Made by a program: the position numbers and the translations under genes. From Candidatus Pacearchaeota archaeon (GTDB lineage Archaea > Nanobdellota > Nanobdellia > Pacearchaeales > GW2011-AR1), in contig JBBDJQ010000001.1 of NCBI GenBank assembly GCA_040879765.1, positions 204,263 through 268,262 on the forward strand: 64,000 nt of DNA. The letters are read 5' to 3'. The notes under the pieces were generated by a model. That model was not told the DNA's origin. It saw only the letters and a list, made by a program, of their open reading frames with translations, and searched no databases. The stretch's first letter is position 1. Each line of letters begins with the position of its first letter. Of the stretch, positions 1-38,152 are shown piece by piece.

Positions 1-1
1 T

Positions 2-3000
2 CTGGCAGAAGACATAACTCTGAAAGAAAAAGTTACTTCTGGTTGGACAGCTTATACTCCTTCTATTGATGGAACACTTGCAGGAGTTGCAGATATTCCA
101 AGAGGAGAAATCAGATATACCGCAGATAACCTTGGAACAATAAGAGCTCAAGAATACAAGCTATTAAGTTATTTCATACTATCTTCGTCAGAAATAGATG
201 CTGCTGCTGAACTTAGATACAACCTTACATGGGGCTCAAGAAATAAATATGAAGATTCTGCGTTTAAAATAAACACATCAAGATATATTGATGAATCTAG
301 ATTGTCTTACAACATCAGAACAATTGGTAGCTTTAAAGACCGTTCAGCGGAAGCCGATGATGATTCATTGTATGAATTTAATATAACAAACATAGGAGAT
401 CTAAACATTGCAAACAACACATGGAATGTCAGTTTAAGCATTCCTTCGCAATGTACTCAATCAAACCACACAGGAACTTACAATTCTGGGACGGGAAAAA
501 TAACTTGGCCATTAGGACCTTTGAATGTAAGTGACATAAATACTTTCCACTTAAATCTAAACTGTAGTACAGAAAACAGATATGTATTAAGCGCAGAAGC
601 TGTAAATGACACGCAAACAAAAACAAGCTTTTCAAATTCAACAAACATTGACTGTTCTTTCAGCAGTGGAAATGATTGTGTTTCCACAGAAAGCTTCACT
701 TTCAGCAAACCAAGCGATGCAAGATATGAAACCTTGAATAATGTTAACACAACAATCTTCTATAACTGGGATGATTTCAAAACAACAATTGGAGAAGGCT
801 CAGTGAATATTACTAATGATGACGGAAAAGGAAATTTGTTATGGCAAAACTTTTCCATAACAAACCCTGATGGTACAAGTGGAACTGTCTTTTCAAATTA
901 CACTCTTGACGATTCAGAAAAATCTAAATTTGTAAATTCGGCAAGAAATATTAGAGTACGTGCATTTGTGGATTCAACTTCAAGTCCAAATGGAAATGTG
1001 AGTGTACAAAACATTGCATACACATGGGATCATGGAACACTTTTCAACGAAACTCATGAACTTTTCATAGACATACATCCTTTCATATTTGATCTTCCAA
1101 CTCCTGTGCTTTCAACACCTACAAATAATTCTCTACAGGCAGCTGTTCCTGTCGGTTTATCATGGGAAGCTATAGAAGAGCCAGAAGGAGTGGATATAAG
1201 TTATTACGTATTCGGAGATGACACTGATGCATCGACAATTTTAGATACTACAGAAGAAAATCTTTACCTATGGCGTGATCTTGGAGCTCAGCAAGGAATA
1301 TTTTATTGGAAAATAATTGCTACGGATGGAATTTCAAACACCACATCTGAAACACGCCAGTTTGAACTGGATTTATGTCAACCAAACACTGATTTCGCTT
1401 TTGCAGAAAGTTATCCGATGTCTTATGATAATATAACGGACACAATAACTATTTGGGGTAGTAATGGCACTGACTTCGATGCAATGGGCAACAACGAAAG
1501 CAATCCAATAACATTCCAAGAAATATTTGAATTTGGTCAAGCTGTAAGAGGAGTTTGTGCAGTTAACAATCCTTCATCAGGAGCGTATGTTGTATTAAGC
1601 CGTCTTGAATTAGGAAACACAACCGACTCATTAAATACTACTTTCGTAAAGACAACGGGAGAATCGTTAGGCTTTGGTAAGCAGGTTCAATTAAATTTTA
1701 ACGCAACTTTGACATCTGGAAGAGTCACGGCAGGAGGAACACCTCAAGCAGGATCAACACTTGCGTTCTCTGGTTTAGATGCAACAGGTAATGAAGAAGG
1801 ACAGTTTTACACAAAGAGCGGTTCAAATCTAAAATTATTCGACACAGGCGTCTCGCACACCATTGATGCAAACAACTCAAATCCTTTCAGGCTTTATTGG
1901 AATGGAAACACAGAAATAAGAGCAAGCACCTTACAGAACTGGCACACAATAAGATTCTTTGGAAGTAATAATATAATAAACAATATGATTTTGACAGATA
2001 TGGGTGAAGGTTTCTTCCCTGCAACAACACAAACAGGAACGCTGACAACTGTAAGACCTAGCGGAATTGATACTGGCGGTTTAATGTTGTTCACTGAAAA
2101 CACTTCTTTAACAGAGCCAAATTTCACAATAACAGGCCTAGAGGTTTCAGAATCAACAAACGACATACTCGTTCAAAATTATACTGGGAAAGCGATTTTG
2201 ATAAACCCTACACTAAACTTCAGCAACATAAACTGGACAGAAGGTTCCTTCGGTGGAAGCATTGAAAGAAAATTCGATTACACTCCAACGATAACTGATT
2301 CAATAGGTGCATCTGTTGCAAACACAACACTTGTGTTACTTGACACAAAAGGAGATTTAATTTTCTCATTGAAAACAGACGCTCAAGGAAGCATTCCAAA
2401 ACAGATAATTACAAGGGCACTCTATGATTACAATTTCAAAACCGGAGACGACCAAGGACCTCACACACTTTACATACAAAAATACGGAAGCAATTTCCAG
2501 ACAGCGGCTAAAGCTTTCTCTGCAGCGACGGTTGAAACCTTGCAATTAGGTGATAATCAATTCACAACGCTTTCAGAGTCAGGAGCAGAAGCTTTGGAAA
2601 ACATAACATACAACGCTCCAACTCAAGTAAGCCATGGTGATGAGATAAATACTACTTGGAGTACTTCTGGAACGTTGGCAAACGCCCCAATAGACCAGTG
2701 CCAGTTCTTTGCAATTTTCGCGAACAGCACAAAACTTGTTGAAGGGGCAAGCAACAACTTTACAATAAATTATGCAACAGGAGAAGTTACATTCAACCAA
2801 GACATGTCTGATTATGAAATCCGCCCAGTGTATTCTTACGGAGGAAATGTTACAGTTACAAATGGTTTGACAGTTGCAGAAGCGTTTACAATGAAAGACC
2901 TTTACGACTTTACACAACAGCAAACAACTCAAAACAACTTGTCAGCAGACCTATTGACTGTTGATGGATTAACTTACACATTCTGTGTGGACCTTGCTTT

Positions 3001-6000
3001 AGGAAACAACGACACCGCTGGAAGTATTTCAGACCCAGAAGCAACAATAGAATTCAACGACGGTTATGATGTCATTGTCGGAGATAAAGGAGGTTTGCTT
3101 GACTTGGCAGGGGTTGGAGGAACAGGAACTGTTGAAAATATTGATGTAGGGAAACCACAGATAAAGCTTGGAGAAACGCAGACAGTATTAGTAAGCTTGA
3201 CAAATGATGTGGGAGACCCTTTAACAGGAGAAACAATTACTGCAAATGTTCATTTCCCTGATGGAACTATCTGGCTTGAAGACAAAGTATTCACAGAATT
3301 CACTGATGGGTTTTACAGATTGGAATTTAACATGCCTTCAATAGATAATGAAATTCCTTACGGAATTTATTCTGTGCATGTATTTGGACAAGGATTTAGC
3401 GCTGTAAGAACATTTGAATTTGTGCCTGAACTTGATTTAATCTCAAGATTTAGGGTCGGTGACAAGATATTTGATATAAATTTAGCGCATTTGGATAAAG
3501 GAACAGGAAACGTTACTTTGAAATTTGAAACCTTTAATCCAAGAAGTGAAAATAAGACTTTCTCGCAATTTGACCTTTGGGAAAGAAATTATTTTATGCT
3601 TTTGCCGACAACTCTTATGGCTTCTCACTTTGATGTAGATGTTTATGAAATGAATAACAGCAGAGAGATAAATTTTGACAGTTTTGAAGACCAAAATATA
3701 AGTGACTGGAGTTTCTCAGGAGATATAATAAATCTTACAGTTGCAGAAACAACTCTTTTAAGAGACAACTTTGCATTGAATGTAACTCTTAATTTCTCAA
3801 CAGGAAACGGAACAATTGCAAAGAACATTTCATCAACAGATTTCTCAAATGTTGCAAATGAATTAAGGGAGTTTGATGTTGAATACTATCTTCCTGATCT
3901 TCAACTAGAAAACATCTCTATAAAACTAAAGACAAATGAAACAGATTATTTTGTTGAGAACAGGGAATTAAGAGGTTGGAAGATATTGTTTTCGGGAGAA
4001 TCGGCAACACACATAGATTCTTTTGATTATGATAAACTGCAAACTTTCGGAAATCCAAACATTTCAAACATAACAGGAATTGAAATAACATTCATAGGAA
4101 CAGACAATTACACTACGCCAACTTCAATTTTGGTTGATGATGTTGAATTGCATAAATTGGAAATTTTCCCTCATGACAGAATGGGCTCAAAATTCTTATC
4201 TTCTGTAACAAGCACTCTTTTCTGGTGGAATGGAGATGGAACTTACAGGCTTGAAAGTAGAGAGGAAAAAGAGTATACAGTAATATTACAGTCTCTTGAA
4301 TTTGAATGGCTCACAACATGGGCAAATGATTTCCCTAATGACGCTTTCATACAGGAAAAATACCAAGAGGCTTTAGATGCAAACTTTTATTATGAGATTT
4401 TAGTGCCGTTTGAGCAGGTTAAAGGTTATTTACTTGCAAACACTGACAAAAAACTTTTCATTGTTTCAGACATTGGAACAAGTTACAATCCAGGAGATAA
4501 AGCAACAGCAAACATAGTTACTTACGATAACACTGCAAATCTTGTTACTGCGAATGTAACTGTCACTGCAAAATACCCGAATGGAACAACCTTCTCACAA
4601 GGAACTCCAACAGAAAGCTCAACAGGAATCTACAACTACAGTTTTGTAATTCCTTCAACACTTGGAGATTATTCAACATTAATAACTGCAAATGATTCTG
4701 TGAATAAAGACGCGAGAATACATACTATCTCTGTTGTTTCGGCAACCTCTGGCTCAGGAACAGGTGGTTTGGCCTTGAACATGTTCAACTCTGTTGGAAG
4801 CAGTTATGATTTGGGAGAAACCGTAAGGCTTTTCACTACAACTGTGAATTCCTCCGGATCATTAGTTAACTCAACAGTTAATGTTGCAACATTTGACCCG
4901 GACGGAACTCAAATAAACAGCGGGGAATCTATAAGAATTTCCGAAGGAAGATTTGAGTATAACTTTACTGCGCCGAGTACAGAAGGAACCTATAGGCTTA
5001 ATATTGATTCAAACTACTCTGGAGATGAAGCTCATGACACAGAGGCGTTTATCATATCTTCAGGCGGAGGCAGTGGCGGAGACGCCTCAGTTCCACAAAT
5101 ACAAGTAGAAGCACCAAATTCCATAGATACAAACACTAACTTTAGCATAACCTCTCTTACAACTAATAAAAATGGTGTAGCAACTAGTTGTGATTCTGGA
5201 GCAAACGTAACAATAAGAGATACTTTAGCAGGAACAAACCTTGTTGACAATGAAGCAATGACAAACTTCGGAACAGGTTTGTACAATTACACTTACTCGA
5301 CTGGAACAAGCTCAAGCTTCCTTACTGTAATTGATTGTACTATTTCGGGGGTTGAATACAAAGGAATAAAATCCTTTTCAACACAAGGCGTGGCATTGCC
5401 ATCAGGAGCAGTGGTAGAAATGTCCGACTTTGATGAGGTTCTTGCAGGAAACGATTACAGGGCAAAGGTTTGGGTATTTGACCAAAACGGAAATCCAATA
5501 AACGCCAATTCAATCCCAACAGTAACTCTATATGATCCATTAAGAAACATAATTGTGCAAGATGTTTCAATGACTCAAGATTCAACTGGAATTTATGTTT
5601 ATAATTTCACAACCTCGAGTACTCAAACCGGAGGTGTCTGGGAAACTATAGCAAATGTGGTTGTAAATGGTGTAACTTACTCTCCATCAGATTTCTGGGA
5701 ACTTGAATCCAGTCCTGCAGAAGTTAAGATAAATGAAATATCAGATAAAACAGTGCCAACAATAAGTGCTGATGTGACAATTACAAATGAGGGTAACAGC
5801 AATCAAGAATACCAATATGAATACTGTATTGTTTCTCAACAAAGCAATCAGTGTGGAGGAGATGACGATGAGGATTATGCCTCAGGAGCTAAACTACTAA
5901 GTCCTGGACAGAGTTTTAATCCAACTTTGAATCTTGAAGTTTTGACAGCAGGAGATTATTACTTCAAGCTTGTTGTTTACTTTGGAACAGAAAAATCTGG

Positions 6001-6691
6001 AGCTTCCCAATTATTCACTGCAGTTGATGAAGATACCACAACAAGCGAGCCAAGTTCTGGTGGGGGTAGTGGAAGTGCTGGCGGAGGGGGAGCAGCAACG
6101 CCAAGTGAAGAACTACCTGTGGAAGGAAAATCTGAATTATTCAATATAGAAATAAATATACCTGAAAGAAACCAAAGAATTGCTCCGGGGGAAAACATTG
6201 CCGCAGGAATAAAAATCACAGACTTCAGCTCAGTAAAAGGTGCCAAAAACATTACACTATATTACTACATAGAAAACTCTAAAGGTATTGTCTACTCTGA
6301 AAAATTCGAGCAACTAACTTTGAATGAGGTTTTAGAAATATTGCGTGAAATTAAAATCCCTAAAGACACTCCTGAAGGGGCATATTCTTTTGTGGCAAAA
6401 ATTGAATATCAAGAAGAAGTGGCAATAGGAAAAAAAACCTTCAGTGTTGTTAAAGAAGATATATTGACCCCTCCTTTAACAGAAAAAGTAAATCTTTATC
6501 TAATAGCAATAATATTAATTGTTGCATTAATCATACTTTTACTCATGAGATTTTTCTATGGGGGAAAAAGAGGAAATCTAAAAAAAGACTATGCACACAG
6601 AAAGAGAAAATGGTTTGGTAAGAGTAAAACAGCCCATAGCTATCATGAAAGAGAAAGCTTAAAAAAGATTATTAGGCACATTAAGGAATAA
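2..6691 (+). CDS. Giant secreted/surface glycoprotein (S-layer/adhesin-like), 5' truncated by window edge
   Basis: Frame 2 is open from the window start (LAEDITLKEKVTSGW...), so the TTG at 302 is not the true start. Thr/Ser/Asn-rich with many N-x-S/T sequons, an FN3-like block, five Ig/MG2-like modules, a Gly/Ser linker, a C-terminal hydrophobic helix (NLYLIAIILIVALIILLLMRFF) and a basic tail. Confidence 0.9.
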   Translation: MAEDITLKEKVTSGWTAYTPSIDGTLAGVADIPRGEIRYTADNLGTIRAQEYKLLSYFILSSSEIDAAAELRYNLTWGSRNKYEDSAFKINTSRYIDESRLSYNIRTIGSFKDRSAEADDDSLYEFNITNIGDLNIANNTWNVSLSIPSQCTQSNHTGTYNSGTGKITWPLGPLNVSDINTFHLNLNCSTENRYVLSAEAVNDTQTKTSFSNSTNIDCSFSSGNDCVSTESFTFSKPSDARYETLNNVNTTIFYNWDDFKTTIGEGSVNITNDDGKGNLLWQNFSITNPDGTSGTVFSNYTLDDSEKSKFVNSARNIRVRAFVDSTSSPNGNVSVQNIAYTWDHGTLFNETHELFIDIHPFIFDLPTPVLSTPTNNSLQAAVPVGLSWEAIEEPEGVDISYYVFGDDTDASTILDTTEENLYLWRDLGAQQGIFYWKIIATDGISNTTSETRQFELDLCQPNTDFAFAESYPMSYDNITDTITIWGSNGTDFDAMGNNESNPITFQEIFEFGQAVRGVCAVNNPSSGAYVVLSRLELGNTTDSLNTTFVKTTGESLGFGKQVQLNFNATLTSGRVTAGGTPQAGSTLAFSGLDATGNEEGQFYTKSGSNLKLFDTGVSHTIDANNSNPFRLYWNGNTEIRASTLQNWHTIRFFGSNNIINNMILTDMGEGFFPATTQTGTLTTVRPSGIDTGGLMLFTENTSLTEPNFTITGLEVSESTNDILVQNYTGKAILINPTLNFSNINWTEGSFGGSIERKFDYTPTITDSIGASVANTTLVLLDTKGDLIFSLKTDAQGSIPKQIITRALYDYNFKTGDDQGPHTLYIQKYGSNFQTAAKAFSAATVETLQLGDNQFTTLSESGAEALENITYNAPTQVSHGDEINTTWSTSGTLANAPIDQCQFFAIFANSTKLVEGASNNFTINYATGEVTFNQDMSDYEIRPVYSYGGNVTVTNGLTVAEAFTMKDLYDFTQQQTTQNNLSADLLTVDGLTYTFCVDLALGNNDTAGSISDPEATIEFNDGYDVIVGDKGGLLDLAGVGGTGTVENIDVGKPQIKLGETQTVLVSLTNDVGDPLTGETITANVHFPDGTIWLEDKVFTEFTDGFYRLEFNMPSIDNEIPYGIYSVHVFGQGFSAVRTFEFVPELDLISRFRVGDKIFDINLAHLDKGTGNVTLKFETFNPRSENKTFSQFDLWERNYFMLLPTTLMASHFDVDVYEMNNSREINFDSFEDQNISDWSFSGDIINLTVAETTLLRDNFALNVTLNFSTGNGTIAKNISSTDFSNVANELREFDVEYYLPDLQLENISIKLKTNETDYFVENRELRGWKILFSGESATHIDSFDYDKLQTFGNPNISNITGIEITFIGTDNYTTPTSILVDDVELHKLEIFPHDRMGSKFLSSVTSTLFWWNGDGTYRLESREEKEYTVILQSLEFEWLTTWANDFPNDAFIQEKYQEALDANFYYEILVPFEQVKGYLLANTDKKLFIVSDIGTSYNPGDKATANIVTYDNTANLVTANVTVTAKYPNGTTFSQGTPTESSTGIYNYSFVIPSTLGDYSTLITANDSVNKDARIHTISVVSATSGSGTGGLALNMFNSVGSSYDLGETVRLFTTTVNSSGSLVNSTVNVATFDPDGTQINSGESIRISEGRFEYNFTAPSTEGTYRLNIDSNYSGDEAHDTEAFIISSGGGSGGDASVPQIQVEAPNSIDTNTNFSITSLTTNKNGVATSCDSGANVTIRDTLAGTNLVDNEAMTNFGTGLYNYTYSTGTSSSFLTVIDCTISGVEYKGIKSFSTQGVALPSGAVVEMSDFDEVLAGNDYRAKVWVFDQNGNPINANSIPTVTLYDPLRNIIVQDVSMTQDSTGIYVYNFTTSSTQTGGVWETIANVVVNGVTYSPSDFWELESSPAEVKINEISDKTVPTISADVTITNEGNSNQEYQYEYCIVSQQSNQCGGDDDEDYASGAKLLSPGQSFNPTLNLEVLTAGDYYFKLVVYFGTEKSGASQLFTAVDEDTTTSEPSSGGGSGSAGGGGAATPSEELPVEGKSELFNIEINIPERNQRIAPGENIAAGIKITDFSSVKGAKNITLYYYIENSKGIVYSEKFEQLTLNEVLEILREIKIPKDTPEGAYSFVAKIEYQEEVAIGKKTFSVVKEDILTPPLTEKVNLYLIAIILIVALIILLLMRFFYGGKRGNLKKDYAHRKRKWFGKSKTAHSYHERESLKKIIRHIKE

Positions 6692-6704
6692 GAAAAAAGA
6701 AAAA

Positions 6705-7499
6705 ATGAAACATAAAGGAAACATAATAGCAATAATGTCACCAAAAGGAGGCGTCGGAAAAACAGTAACTACTGCAAATCTTGCCGCGGCTTTAGCATTA
6801 GTTTATGATAAAAAAGTTCTTGCTGTTGATACAAACGTTTCTACTGCTTCATTGGGCATGCATTTTGGCATTTTCTTTCCAGAACATACTCTTCAGGATA
6901 TTTCCGGTAATGCCGGCGATGAGAAATCCCTTCATGTTTACCACCAAAACCTCCACATAATTCCTGCTTCAATAAAAATAAAAAAGAAAGAAAAAAATTT
7001 AAATTCGCTGAGAGAAAACCTCTATTCCACAGTTAAAAATTACGAGAAATTCTTAAAGAGTTTGTCTGATGATTACTATTTAATTCTTCTTGACTGTTCT
7101 CCAGGATTTGACCTTGAGACTTTGGCAGCCATGCAGGTTGCTTCTGGGTTGATCATTGTTACAAACCCAGATTATCCTTCAATCATAACAGCAGCAAGAG
7201 CAATTGAATATGCTAAAAAAATAAAGATGCCTGTCGGAGGACTTGTGTTAAATCAGGTAAGAAAAAAGAAATACGAACTAAAAAAGGAACATATTGAAGA
7301 TGCACTTAAAATAAAAATTCTTGAAGAGATTCCGTACGATAGGAAAGTACAGGAATCAATTGCAAATAGAAAACCTGTTGTTTTGTTCAAGCAAAATTCA
7401 AAATCAGGCAGGGCATTTCAAAAATTGGCTGCTTCCATTTGCGGAGAGGATTATAGGGATTCGTGGATTAGAAAAATAATTAAAAAAGTAAAACGATGA
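6705..7499 (+). CDS. MinD/ParA-family ATPase
   Basis: Deviant Walker A SPKGGVGKT, AVDTN, LLDCSPG, C-terminal amphipathic helix SWIRKIIKKVKR. Confidence 0.9.
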   Translation: MKHKGNIIAIMSPKGGVGKTVTTANLAAALALVYDKKVLAVDTNVSTASLGMHFGIFFPEHTLQDISGNAGDEKSLHVYHQNLHIIPASIKIKKKEKNLNSLRENLYSTVKNYEKFLKSLSDDYYLILLDCSPGFDLETLAAMQVASGLIIVTNPDYPSIITAARAIEYAKKIKMPVGGLVLNQVRKKKYELKKEHIEDALKIKILEEIPYDRKVQESIANRKPVVLFKQNSKSGRAFQKLAASICGEDYRDSWIRKIIKKVKR

Positions 7500-7793
7500 A
7501 CAAATTTAAAATCAAAGGAGAATAAATAAAAATATTTTTTTATATTGGTCATTTTTTAACCTGGTTTTGCCAATAATAAATTCTTTTGAAATAGCCGATG
7601 TGATAAGGAACTATGGTGGTATTCCAGTAGTCAAAGTTGCCTAGATACATCTCATGCCTATCATCTTGGTTTTGATATTAATAATACCTAATTAGATATT
7701 TTGAAATTATGATTCAAAGAAAGGGTGTTTAGATATGAGAAAAAAGACTAATAAACAAATTTAAAAATAAAAAATGGTTAAGAGAATAAGAAT

Positions 7794-8231
7794 ATGGTAG
7801 CACTAATAAACGACATTGCAATAATCTTCCTTGTTTTTGTAATCCATATTGTTGCAATAATCTATACATGGAAAGTCGGACTAATATTTAATTCAAGGTC
7901 TTGGAATTTTATAATGGCAGCATTTATTATACTTCTTTTTTGGGATATGGTTAATTTTTTGAACTTATTTGAACTTATTTATTATGACCACCCCTATATG
8001 TTGTTCATAAATCAAATTTATTTACCCTTAATATTTTGGATTTTGATAAGTTTGGGAATGGCTAGGATTTATTATAACATAAGACATTCTATGAATATCG
8101 AAAAAAAATTAAAGAATTCCGAGAATACAAAAAAATCTGCAGATAAGAATTCTGGAAAGAAGAAAAAAAAAGGTAAAAGACTAACTTTTGATGAAAGAGT
8201 TTCAAAAATTTTAGAAAGAGAGGGAGTTTAA
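7794..8231 (+). CDS. Hypothetical membrane protein (~3 TM helices, basic C-terminus)
   Basis: Three hydrophobic segments followed by a Lys-rich tail. Confidence 0.75.
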   Translation: MVALINDIAIIFLVFVIHIVAIIYTWKVGLIFNSRSWNFIMAAFIILLFWDMVNFLNLFELIYYDHPYMLFINQIYLPLIFWILISLGMARIYYNIRHSMNIEKKLKNSENTKKSADKNSGKKKKKGKRLTFDERVSKILEREGV

Positions 8232-8238
8232 TTTAAAT

Positions 8239-8601
8239 ATGGCGAATGAAGATAAAGATTTCGATAAAGAAGAGAAAAGAATAGATGAGGAAGAAAAAGG
8301 ATTAAAAATAAAGAAATTAATTTTGAAACTCTCAAGGGCAAAAGATGCTTTAACTAGATCTAAGAGGGCTAAAAAGAAATTAGATCCAATGGACAAATAT
8401 CTTTATGATGAAGAGATAAATTTGAATAAAGAATTACCTGGGGTAAAGAAGAAGCTTGAAAAACTTATGGAAGAGAAGGAGGAAATAGAAAAGAAAAAAG
8501 ATTATCTTGACAAAGCTATAGAAAAACTAAATAAGTCAATAGATAGTCAAAATAAGAGAATTCTTGAAATCGGAAAGAAGTTGAATAAAGTAAGAAGGTA
8601 A
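8239..8601 (+). CDS. Hypothetical coiled-coil protein
   Basis: K/E-rich heptad-like sequence, 7 nt after the previous stop. Confidence 0.7.
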   Translation: MANEDKDFDKEEKRIDEEEKGLKIKKLILKLSRAKDALTRSKRAKKKLDPMDKYLYDEEINLNKELPGVKKKLEKLMEEKEEIEKKKDYLDKAIEKLNKSIDSQNKRILEIGKKLNKVRR

Positions 8602-37363: not shown

Positions 37364-38152
37364 TCAGTCCCTATTTCTCTTAATTTTTCTGAATAATCTT
37401 TCAAGTAAACTTTCTTTATCTTCGTTTGAATCATATTCAATATCTAGGATTTTTGCTGCAATTTCCTTGTATGCTCTAGATGGGTTTGATTTTGGATGAG
37501 TATTTACAACAGGACTTTTCAAATTCAAAGATCTTTTTACATCCATGTCATGTGGAATCATCCCTAAAATTGGAACCTCTAATATTTCCCTAACATTGTC
37601 TGGTTGCATTTCTATTTTATCTTTTCTAACTTTTGTCATAATTACTCCAAGCACATCTTTCTTCATACTTTCTGCAACCTTTATTGCCTTTAGAGCATCA
37701 GTTATTGCTGGAATTTCTGGATTTGTTATAACTATTAATTCATCTGCAATATCTATTGCTGAAAAAGCTTCCTCTCCTAATCCGGCGGCACTATCAATTA
37801 TAACTATATCTGCAACTTTTTTCAAATCTTTTTTCAAATCTTTTAGCTTTTCAGATTTTATTTTTTTTAATTCTTTTACAGAAAGCGAGGAAGGAATTAT
37901 TCTTATTCCGGATTCATGTTCATATATTGCTTCAGACAAATCTGCTTTATTTGACAAAACATGGTTTAAGCTTACCGGAGCTTCAGGACATCCTAAATGG
38001 ATTCCAACATTTGGAGTCGTTAAATTTGCATCAACTACTAAAACTTTTTTCCCAAAATAACACATGGCTGCAGCTAAATTGATTGCAGATGTGGTTTTAC
38101 CAACTCCTCCCTTTCCTGAAGTTATTACAATTACTTTGGTCATTTTAAGCAC
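37364..38152 (-). CDS. minD: Cell division ATPase MinD (archaeal type)
   Basis: SGKGGVGKTT, VDAN, IIDSAAG, amphipathic tail LLERLFRKI. Confidence 0.92.
   Translation of the reverse strand: MLKMTKVIVITSGKGGVGKTTSAINLAAAMCYFGKKVLVVDANLTTPNVGIHLGCPEAPVSLNHVLSNKADLSEAIYEHESGIRIIPSSLSVKELKKIKSEKLKDLKKDLKKVADIVIIDSAAGLGEEAFSAIDIADELIVITNPEIPAITDALKAIKVAESMKKDVLGVIMTKVRKDKIEMQPDNVREILEVPILGMIPHDMDVKRSLNLKSPVVNTHPKSNPSRAYKEIAAKILDIEYDSNEDKESLLERLFRKIKRNRD

Follow-up and report, generated by a model that had tools for sequence, protein, structure and literature searches.

A MinD-fold ATPase encoded directly behind anchored surface proteins in Nanoarchaeota: a candidate cargo-dedicated MinD

In a 64,000-nucleotide (nt) stretch of the genome of a Candidatus Pacearchaeota archaeon (NCBI GenBank assembly GCA_040879765.1, contig JBBDJQ010000001.1; the whole stretch is called the window below), a gene encoding a giant surface protein is followed on the same strand by a gene encoding a MinD-type ATPase, and we found that this pairing recurs in related archaea, that the ATPases concerned form a clade of their own and that most of the proteins encoded beside them end in the same short peptide. 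On balance we lean, if only modestly, towards reading the pair as a cargo-dedicated MinD, which would dock on the tail of the surface protein and so position or cluster this adhesin. The assembly (G000; 525,751 bp in 2 contigs, 93% complete) was obtained from a sediment metagenome, and the window is C1:204263-268262, C1 denoting the contig named above. The parts of the two genes that carry the argument are the following, in window coordinates and with lengths in amino acids (aa):

2..6691, + strand: probable giant surface glycoprotein (P0001), C-terminal 2229 aa, in an open frame running off the window start
4484..4684, + strand: best-scoring MG2 (alpha-2-macroglobulin-type Ig-like) domain (PF01835, E 3.9e-22, residues 1495-1561 of P0001)
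6134..6487, + strand: juxtamembrane anchor module, conserved and situated immediately outside the membrane, which aligns across all upstream proteins
6488..6556, + strand: C-terminal transmembrane (TM) helix VNLYLIAIILIVALIILLLMRFF, by direct reading of the sequence
6557..6655, + strand: basic cytoplasmic linker, from the tail alignment, its length (14 to ~100 aa) and sequence variable among relatives
6656..6688, + strand: terminal tail motif SLKKIIRHIKE of the giant protein, from the tail alignment (hydrophobic moment 0.85)
6705..7499, + strand: MinD-fold deviant-Walker-A ATPase (P0002, type member of the P0002-type clade), 264 aa, from Pfam and NCBIfam matches, an AlphaFold2 model and its own tree clade
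6744..6764, + strand: deviant Walker A motif KGGVGKT, residues 14-20, with signature Lys14 and Lys19, invariant in 32 family members
7458..7496, + strand: C-terminal amphipathic helix DSWIRKIIKKVKR, a candidate membrane-targeting sequence

The stop codon of the giant gene and the start codon of the ATPase gene are separated by a 13-nt purine-rich gap (TAA GAAAAAAGAAAAA ATG). Among the 21 intact loci read in the neighbourhood survey, the ATPase gene lies directly behind a same-strand gene whose product has the same C-terminal anchor architecture in 19, and in 17 of those 19 the gap is at most 20 nt or the stop and start codons overlap. The upstream surface proteins range from 96 to 8011 aa (recorded sizes of 96, 302, 466, 558, 566, 571, 590, 1229, at least 1473, at least 1500, at least 2280, at least 2313, 3758, about 3849, 4218, at least 4967 and 8011 aa), and the genes flanking the pair vary from one locus to another. 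The linkage itself holds even where the ATPases share no more than 43-49% identity, and it is found in at least four GTDB families; the ATPases of the ~20 recurring loci are 43-70% identical. Because it recurs in ~20 independent loci, the arrangement is not due to chance, and the adjacency on which the original prediction had built a dedicated localisation module is no peculiarity of this genome.

The C-termini of the upstream proteins can be aligned as a conserved juxtamembrane domain, a TM helix, a variable basic linker and a conserved terminal peptide, the last with the family consensus [DE]-L-[KN]-[KN]-[LI]-[IVM]-x-[HYF]-[IV]-[KR], which would form a short amphipathic helix. Examples are ENLKKIIKHIREEV, DNLKKIVRHIKGA, QDLNKLISYIKKEI, EKLKNLISFIREEI, GDLKKIMDHVRKNLR, KDLEKIVEHMKKNIK and PDLHDIIKHMKKDMK, and the tail of the giant protein itself ends in ...ESLKKIIRHIKE (also given as ...HERESLKKIIRHIKE). 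That the last 10-12 residues are kept where the linker is free to vary points to selection on the peptide itself, and we propose from the alignment that this peptide could be the docking site for the ATPase. The motif, written more narrowly as [DE]-L-K-K-[IL]-[IV]-x-[HY]-I-[KR], is present in 16 of the 21 proteins adjoining an ATPase and in none of the 23 readable anchor-module proteins encoded elsewhere (Fisher's exact p = 5e-8, a value that overstates independence, since the motif expression was written after the sequences had been seen and the loci are related). Among the ~2360 open reading frames (ORFs) of the genome, only the giant protein carries it. The anchor module, whose profile matches 328 of the 401 family genomes, is thus a general surface-protein anchor of the lineage; the tail motif tracks the ATPase, which strengthens the idea of a dedicated module.

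Pfam and NCBIfam assign the ATPase to ParA/MinD, the best model being TIGR01969 (minD_arch), which it matches with 167.4 bits, below the curated cut-off of 201.75 bits. The residues K14, K19, T20, D42 (switch I) and D130 (Walker B) are invariant in the 32 P0002-type members, and the signature lysine, both aspartates and the fold are those of the deviant-Walker-A ParA/MinD family. In the AlphaFold2 model (pLDDT 85.3, pTM 0.86), the best PDB matches by Foldseek are the archaeal MinDs 1G3Q, 1ION and 1HYQ of Pyrococcus and Archaeoglobus (E 1e-20, TM-score 0.8), followed by bacterial MinD, Soj and FlhG. The C-terminus of the ATPase is helical in this model at low confidence, its amphipathic character is kept across the family, and its hydrophobic moment (0.86) can be set beside that of the canonical MinD of the genome (0.89). 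Judged by its sequence, the ATPase keeps the catalytic motifs of a MinD intact and looks active. We could confirm what had been described from the DNA in the first place, namely an anchored ORF of at least 2229 aa, an ATPase gene 13 nt further on, an intact signature lysine and an amphipathic C-terminus.

Three MinD paralogues are encoded in the genome, at 6705-7499, at 37364-38152 and, outside the window, at C1:149646-150377. The second had been noted as a more canonical minD; it is real, is located on the minus strand and passes TIGR01969 with 261 bits. When 78 sequences were placed in a maximum-likelihood tree, 31 relatives grouped with the window ATPase in one clade of their own (SH-aLRT 99), separate from the canonical MinD clade and from a "third" clade, which are themselves distinct, so that grouping with ordinary MinD, the outcome that would have spoken against a specialised ATPase, is not what the tree gives. 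Canonical and third MinDs are both present in almost every genome of the lineage. The third paralogue carries S[IL]KGGVGKT[ST], and in it a conserved C-terminus, ...EINREIFY..VF, replaces the amphipathic helix. Matches of 35-40% identity labelled "Aenigmatarchaeota" were discarded as orthologues, these being ordinary MinDs encoded between enolase and cysteinyl-tRNA synthetase (CysRS).

Of 401 genomes in each sample, the P0002-type ATPase was found in 6 for the family, 5 for the order and 4 for the phylum, which makes ~1-1.5% of sampled Nanoarchaeota genomes; it spans at least four GTDB families of one class, and one genus includes two genomes with and two without it. Metagenomes yielded more than 110 protein clusters of the P0002 type with 43-70% identity. 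A metagenome scan with the family alignment returned true members at 6 of 80 loci, its back-translated patterns being too generic, and the loci of the other relatives were reached by exact-protein look-ups and GTDB genome searches.

The start of the full giant gene, at G000:C1:199404, lies 4859 nt upstream of the window; the gene would encode ~3849 aa, but both this length and the continuity of the frame depend on the assembly, since the gene is interrupted at C1:202716-202815 (aa 1105-1138), 1.4 kb upstream of the window start, by a 100-N scaffold gap. We treat it as one continuous gene because a single-ORF orthologue in the genome G383 spans both sides of the gap. The protein begins with an N-terminal signal peptide, MWINNKRGLIKKSASIVLVVIALISLIIISNYASA, which ends ...NYASA and is followed by E; T, S, N and G are abundant in its sequence, its N-x-S/T sequons reach 3.4 per 100 aa versus 0.58 in the rest of the genome, its ectodomain has MG2/Ig-like Pfam matches, and the tail after the TM helix is basic and 44 aa long. 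With these features it looks like a secreted, C-terminally anchored archaeal surface glycoprotein. An archaeosortase/exosortase sorting signal (PGF-CTERM and relatives) was considered and rejected: no NCBIfam model matches the giant protein, and such a signal, in which a signature motif and a TM helix are followed by a few basic residues at the very C-terminus, does not agree with a post-helix tail of 44 aa that ends in a conserved peptide. Orthologues of 42-60% identity are encoded in G383, G021 and G186. The G+C content of the giant gene is 0.37-0.38 against 0.30-0.33 around it (window 1-6000), which its T/S/N/G/D-rich composition may explain; given this raised G+C and the patchy distribution, transfer of the module is also conceivable.

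Two more giant proteins are encoded in the genome, of 2128 aa (C1:162872-169258) and 3410 aa (C1:407866-418098), both without the tail motif and without a neighbouring MinD gene. Large anchored surface proteins encoded in the same gene clusters (L035 3-2855, L152 2-655 and L043 1-4355) extend into the cytoplasm by a long tail, in which sigma-70-region-4/LuxR-like helix-turn-helix units are repeated (faint Pfam matches to Sigma70_r4_2 and HTH_23), and these proteins could be membrane-tethered DNA-binding surface proteins.

Four ORFs, all on the + strand, fill window positions 2-8601, and gatB on the opposite strand downstream closes the unit. Behind the ATPase gene, and further along for comparison, we distinguished:

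7500..7793, no strand: AT-rich spacer, 294 nt, 25% G+C, with no convincing ORF
7794..8231, + strand: 3-TM membrane protein P0003, 145 aa (three hydrophobic helices; homologues in the nearest subclade)
8239..8601, + strand: K/E-rich helical, probably coiled-coil protein P0004, 120 aa (composition and weak Pfam matches)
37364..38152, - strand: canonical archaeal MinD paralogue, comparison only and outside the module (TIGR01969, canonical clade)

The 3-TM protein was as first described, and the name "coiled-coil" given to its neighbour can be kept as a probable one, drawn from composition and weak Pfam matches. P0003 ends its Lys-rich cytoplasmic tail in ...RVSKILEREGV, and homologues of 44-56% identity (E 1e-30 to 1e-41) lie directly behind the ATPase in four other loci (L041, L042, L048 and G484); they are confined to the nearest subclade (five loci including this one), outside which different small multi-TM proteins stand on one side or the other of the ATPase. 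A 3-TM protein of ~105 aa is also encoded behind many anchored surface proteins that have no MinD. In four loci from family genomes without the special MinD (L165, L170, L179 and L181), the 3-TM protein of ~105 aa lies directly downstream of an anchored surface protein whose tail ends ...[ST]L[LI]K..[MLF]IK.K., and this widespread pairing may represent a broader "anchor partner" arrangement independent of MinD. A homologue of P0004 (39% identity) is encoded just upstream of the ATPase in G012, and L041 and G021 have short analogues. The one in G021, a coiled-coil protein of 88 aa encoded between the giant gene and the ATPase gene, ends in the tail motif, and in G186 a coiled-coil-like stretch is found within the tail of the surface protein itself, which weakly suggests that the small coiled-coil proteins might be free-standing versions of the tail.

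A second common C-terminal peptide, ...[IL][LK][ER]REG[LV]..., occurs within this genome only on P0003 (SKILEREGV, window 8196-8228). It is also found on a 571-aa anchored protein encoded before the ATPase in G012 (SGILEREGLK; L035 4493-6208) and on a 198-aa anchored protein encoded after the ATPase in L052 (KDLKREGLIR; 4038-4634). P0003 and P0004 match no Pfam family above cut-off and no search was aimed at MinC or MinE.

An ORF search, Rfam and a promoter/terminator scan gave no ORF, Rfam family or terminator-like site in the spacer at 7500-7793; the relatives have 0-47 nt on the 3' side of the ATPase gene versus 294 nt here, and the spacer may have arisen from an insert that decayed or may serve as an internal promoter region. 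The giant gene is preceded by split genes for a "fused MFS/spermidine-synthase-like" membrane protein (C1:196826-199188), and the same split genes occur at the orthologous locus of G383 (L183 1-1416) and at L047 673-2965. They were dropped as a part of the module, being absent from L042 and other loci, and a defence-system reading was likewise dropped, as PADLOC matched no defence family.

If the pair is a cargo-dedicated MinD, the giant protein would be exported by its signal peptide, heavily N-glycosylated and held by its single C-terminal helix, leaving in the cytoplasm a basic, flexible tail (25-100 aa) that ends in the conserved amphipathic peptide. The ATPase would be made from the same transcript (in many relatives the stop and start codons overlap), and in its ATP-bound state it would dimerise and sit on the membrane by its own C-terminal amphipathic helix. 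This dimer would bind the tail peptide in the way that peptides of MinE, ParB, McdB and FliM/FliY engage their ParA/MinD partners, ATP hydrolysis would let the tail go, and repeated cycles could gather, space or place the adhesins, for example in one attachment patch, or split them between daughter cells. The 3-TM and coiled-coil proteins would be lineage-specific accessories, perhaps a membrane landmark or a regulator competing for the same site. Direct tail binding, membrane cycling and positioning are what we infer, as are any part in host attachment and an episymbiotic lifestyle.

The scheme agrees with what is known of ParA/MinD systems. Genes of the ParA/MinD family usually adjoin those of their cargo, and the partners engage through a short charged terminal peptide (PMC10241942). 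Among archaeal MinDs, MinD4 is responsible for the placement of archaella and chemosensory arrays, and it depends on its membrane-targeting sequence (bioRxiv 10.1101/2020.04.03.021790). MinD4 and MinD2 of Haloferax volcanii resemble the window ATPase in their archaeal MinD fold and in a C-terminal amphipathic sequence, which targets the membrane in MinD4 and is a candidate for that part here, and MinD4, which has no role in Z-ring placement, places envelope machinery, as the window ATPase would; its link to the cargo is, however, unknown, its gene lies apart from the cargo genes and it belongs to the Euryarchaeota, whereas the present ATPase belongs to another clade, to the DPANN archaea, and is encoded behind a single anchored protein with a terminal peptide. 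The bacterial pairs FlhG-FliM/FliY, ParC-ParP, PpfA-TlpT, McdA-McdB, BcsQ-cellulose synthase and TadZ/CpaE-Tad pilus likewise have one ATPase per cargo with its gene beside the cargo, a short charged terminal peptide is recognised, and the MinD-like members use the membrane as their matrix; here, by contrast, the cargo would be a single-pass giant adhesin with its own C-terminal peptide, there is no conserved separate adaptor, and the organism is an archaeon. The contact helix of MinE is a short basic, hydrophobic amphipathic helix, like the tail motif. The ATPase model superposes on MinD of the Escherichia coli MinD-MinE complexes (3R9I/3R9J) with a TM-score of ~0.8, the differences being that identity is only 24-26% and that the candidate peptide here is on a membrane protein.

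Several observations weigh against a cargo-dedicated MinD, beside the inflated significance of the motif count. The motif is missing in 5 of the 21 loci; at L046/G893 the upstream gene encodes a soluble Lys-rich protein, and G212 has no surface-protein gene upstream of the ATPase gene. Conservation across the clade does not extend to the accessory proteins, P0004-like proteins being sporadic and shifting in position, so that of the dedicated localisation module first proposed the ATPase/adhesin pair is upheld by linkage, clade and tail motif, and the inclusion of P0003 and P0004 only in part. Known ParA/MinD partners use N-terminal peptides, and the candidate here is C-terminal and on the cargo itself. 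AlphaFold2 left the tail helix undocked and with pLDDT <50 in a natural in-frame read-through fusion of tail and ATPase (L041, TAA read as Q), a monomer model that is uninformative on this point. Finally, the orthologue closest to the giant protein (3198 aa, 55-60% identity, tail ESLKKVERYIKE) is encoded in G383, a single-contig genome of the same genus as two of the ATPase carriers; a multi-TM protein stands behind the orthologue there, and the MinDs of that genome are the two ordinary ones alone; the P0002-type ATPase is therefore an accessory that is not required to make or anchor the giant protein.

This last genome, with the fusion model that gave no interface, is also what can be said for an ordinary MinD paralogue, acting in division, in cell shape or on other cargo, that merely shares an operon with the surface protein, the motif being only a membrane-proximal amphipathic helix of an adhesin family; archaeal genomes do often hold several MinD paralogues of unknown role (bioRxiv 10.1101/2020.04.03.021790). 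We consider this unlikely, since the linkage is kept at such low ATPase identity and over so many families while the neighbours change, stop and start codons often overlap, and the motif is distributed as it is between proteins beside the ATPase and those elsewhere. The ATPase is moreover patchy within a genus, like accessory cargo modules, when the two ordinary MinDs are nearly universal.

No more probable, in our estimation, is a biogenesis or quality-control factor, by which the ATPase would catch the tail as the very long protein emerges from the ribosome and aid insertion of the final helix, keep the protein ready to be glycosylated or exported, or activate the ectodomain "inside-out", with no movement along the membrane. 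SIMIBI NTPases such as Get3/ArsA, FlhF and the signal recognition particle (SRP) act in membrane-protein targeting, the ATPase has weak ArsA_ATPase Pfam matches, and translational coupling of its gene to the end of the giant gene implies synthesis of the ATPase next to the completed tail. However, an N-terminal signal peptide is present on the upstream proteins, which makes the C-terminal helix an ordinary stop-transfer anchor in need of no extra factor; the pairing extends to small upstream proteins (302-590 aa), so that size is not the issue; fold and sequence are those of MinD and not of Get3/ArsA; and G383 makes its orthologue without the ATPase.

A component of a type IV filament (T4F), the ATPase being a MinD-like T4F accessory and the giant protein a filament adhesin, is improbable to a clearly greater degree. 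MinD-like genes beside adhesin-bearing T4F loci are already described: they accompany such loci in Thermoproteales, where a MinD-like ATPase and a large adhesin-like protein of Ig fold are found together with subsystem 4G (PMC13705601). The likeness to these ATPases (4G, Pyrobaculum/Thermoproteus, arCOG05616; PMC13705601) consists in the position beside the gene of a large Ig-fold adhesin-like protein, and one related locus, L044 (1717-9113), has seven small pilin-like genes, a T2SSE ATPase gene and two T2SSF genes behind the MinD-like gene. It is the sole case, as T4F core genes are missing here and from the flanks of ~19 of the 20 related loci; the only T2SSE-like gene of this genome is ~66 kb away and no T2SSF is detectable in the 93%-complete assembly, and the giant protein has its own membrane anchor with a docking-type tail. 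Because the ATPase gene is not co-localised with T4F core genes, T4F membership was rejected for this genome.

Scarcely credible is a mobile element with a ParA-type partition cassette and the adhesin gene on board, the basic coiled-coil protein being the DNA-binding adaptor: patchiness even within a genus, the G+C of the giant gene (0.37 versus 0.32 in its surroundings) and a small basic helical protein nearby would fit it, but the ATPase is of the MinD type with a membrane-targeting-like helix and not a DNA-binding ParA, Pfam scans found neither an integrase gene nor replication or ParB-like genes, most loci have no coiled-coil protein, several loci keep the same downstream chromosomal neighbours (an RNase-Z-like gene, LSM, S8e and TFB), and ParABS-type DNA partition was rejected as P0003 and P0004 match no ParB, ribbon-helix-helix or helix-turn-helix family.

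For the cargo-dedicated MinD that we prefer, literature searches turned up no account of the P0002-type clade, of the linkage between these ATPases and giant proteins, or of the tail motif. In cultivated DPANN archaea, attachment to the host is by localised structures whose proteins and assembly are unknown (PMC11420986), and how the surface is organised in cells with such small genomes is the question that the ATPase/adhesin pair addresses. A wider proposal, which we put forward only tentatively and would not yet count on, is that individual giant anchored adhesins of DPANN archaea, each with its own docking peptide, form a class of ParA/MinD cargo not described before, by which a cell with a genome of ~0.5 Mb could pattern its surface from the inside, for example as one host-attachment patch inherited at division, the small coiled-coil proteins being free copies of the tail that regulate the ATPase. 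An ATPase tied to one giant surface protein and a candidate docking peptide of 10 residues together make a hypothesis that can be tested in vitro, with no need for cultivation, and the tail motif provides a sequence signature with which partner adhesins can be sought in metagenomes. If the hypothesis is true, the ParA/MinD field would gain an archaeal membrane-protein cargo that is recognised directly, without an adaptor.

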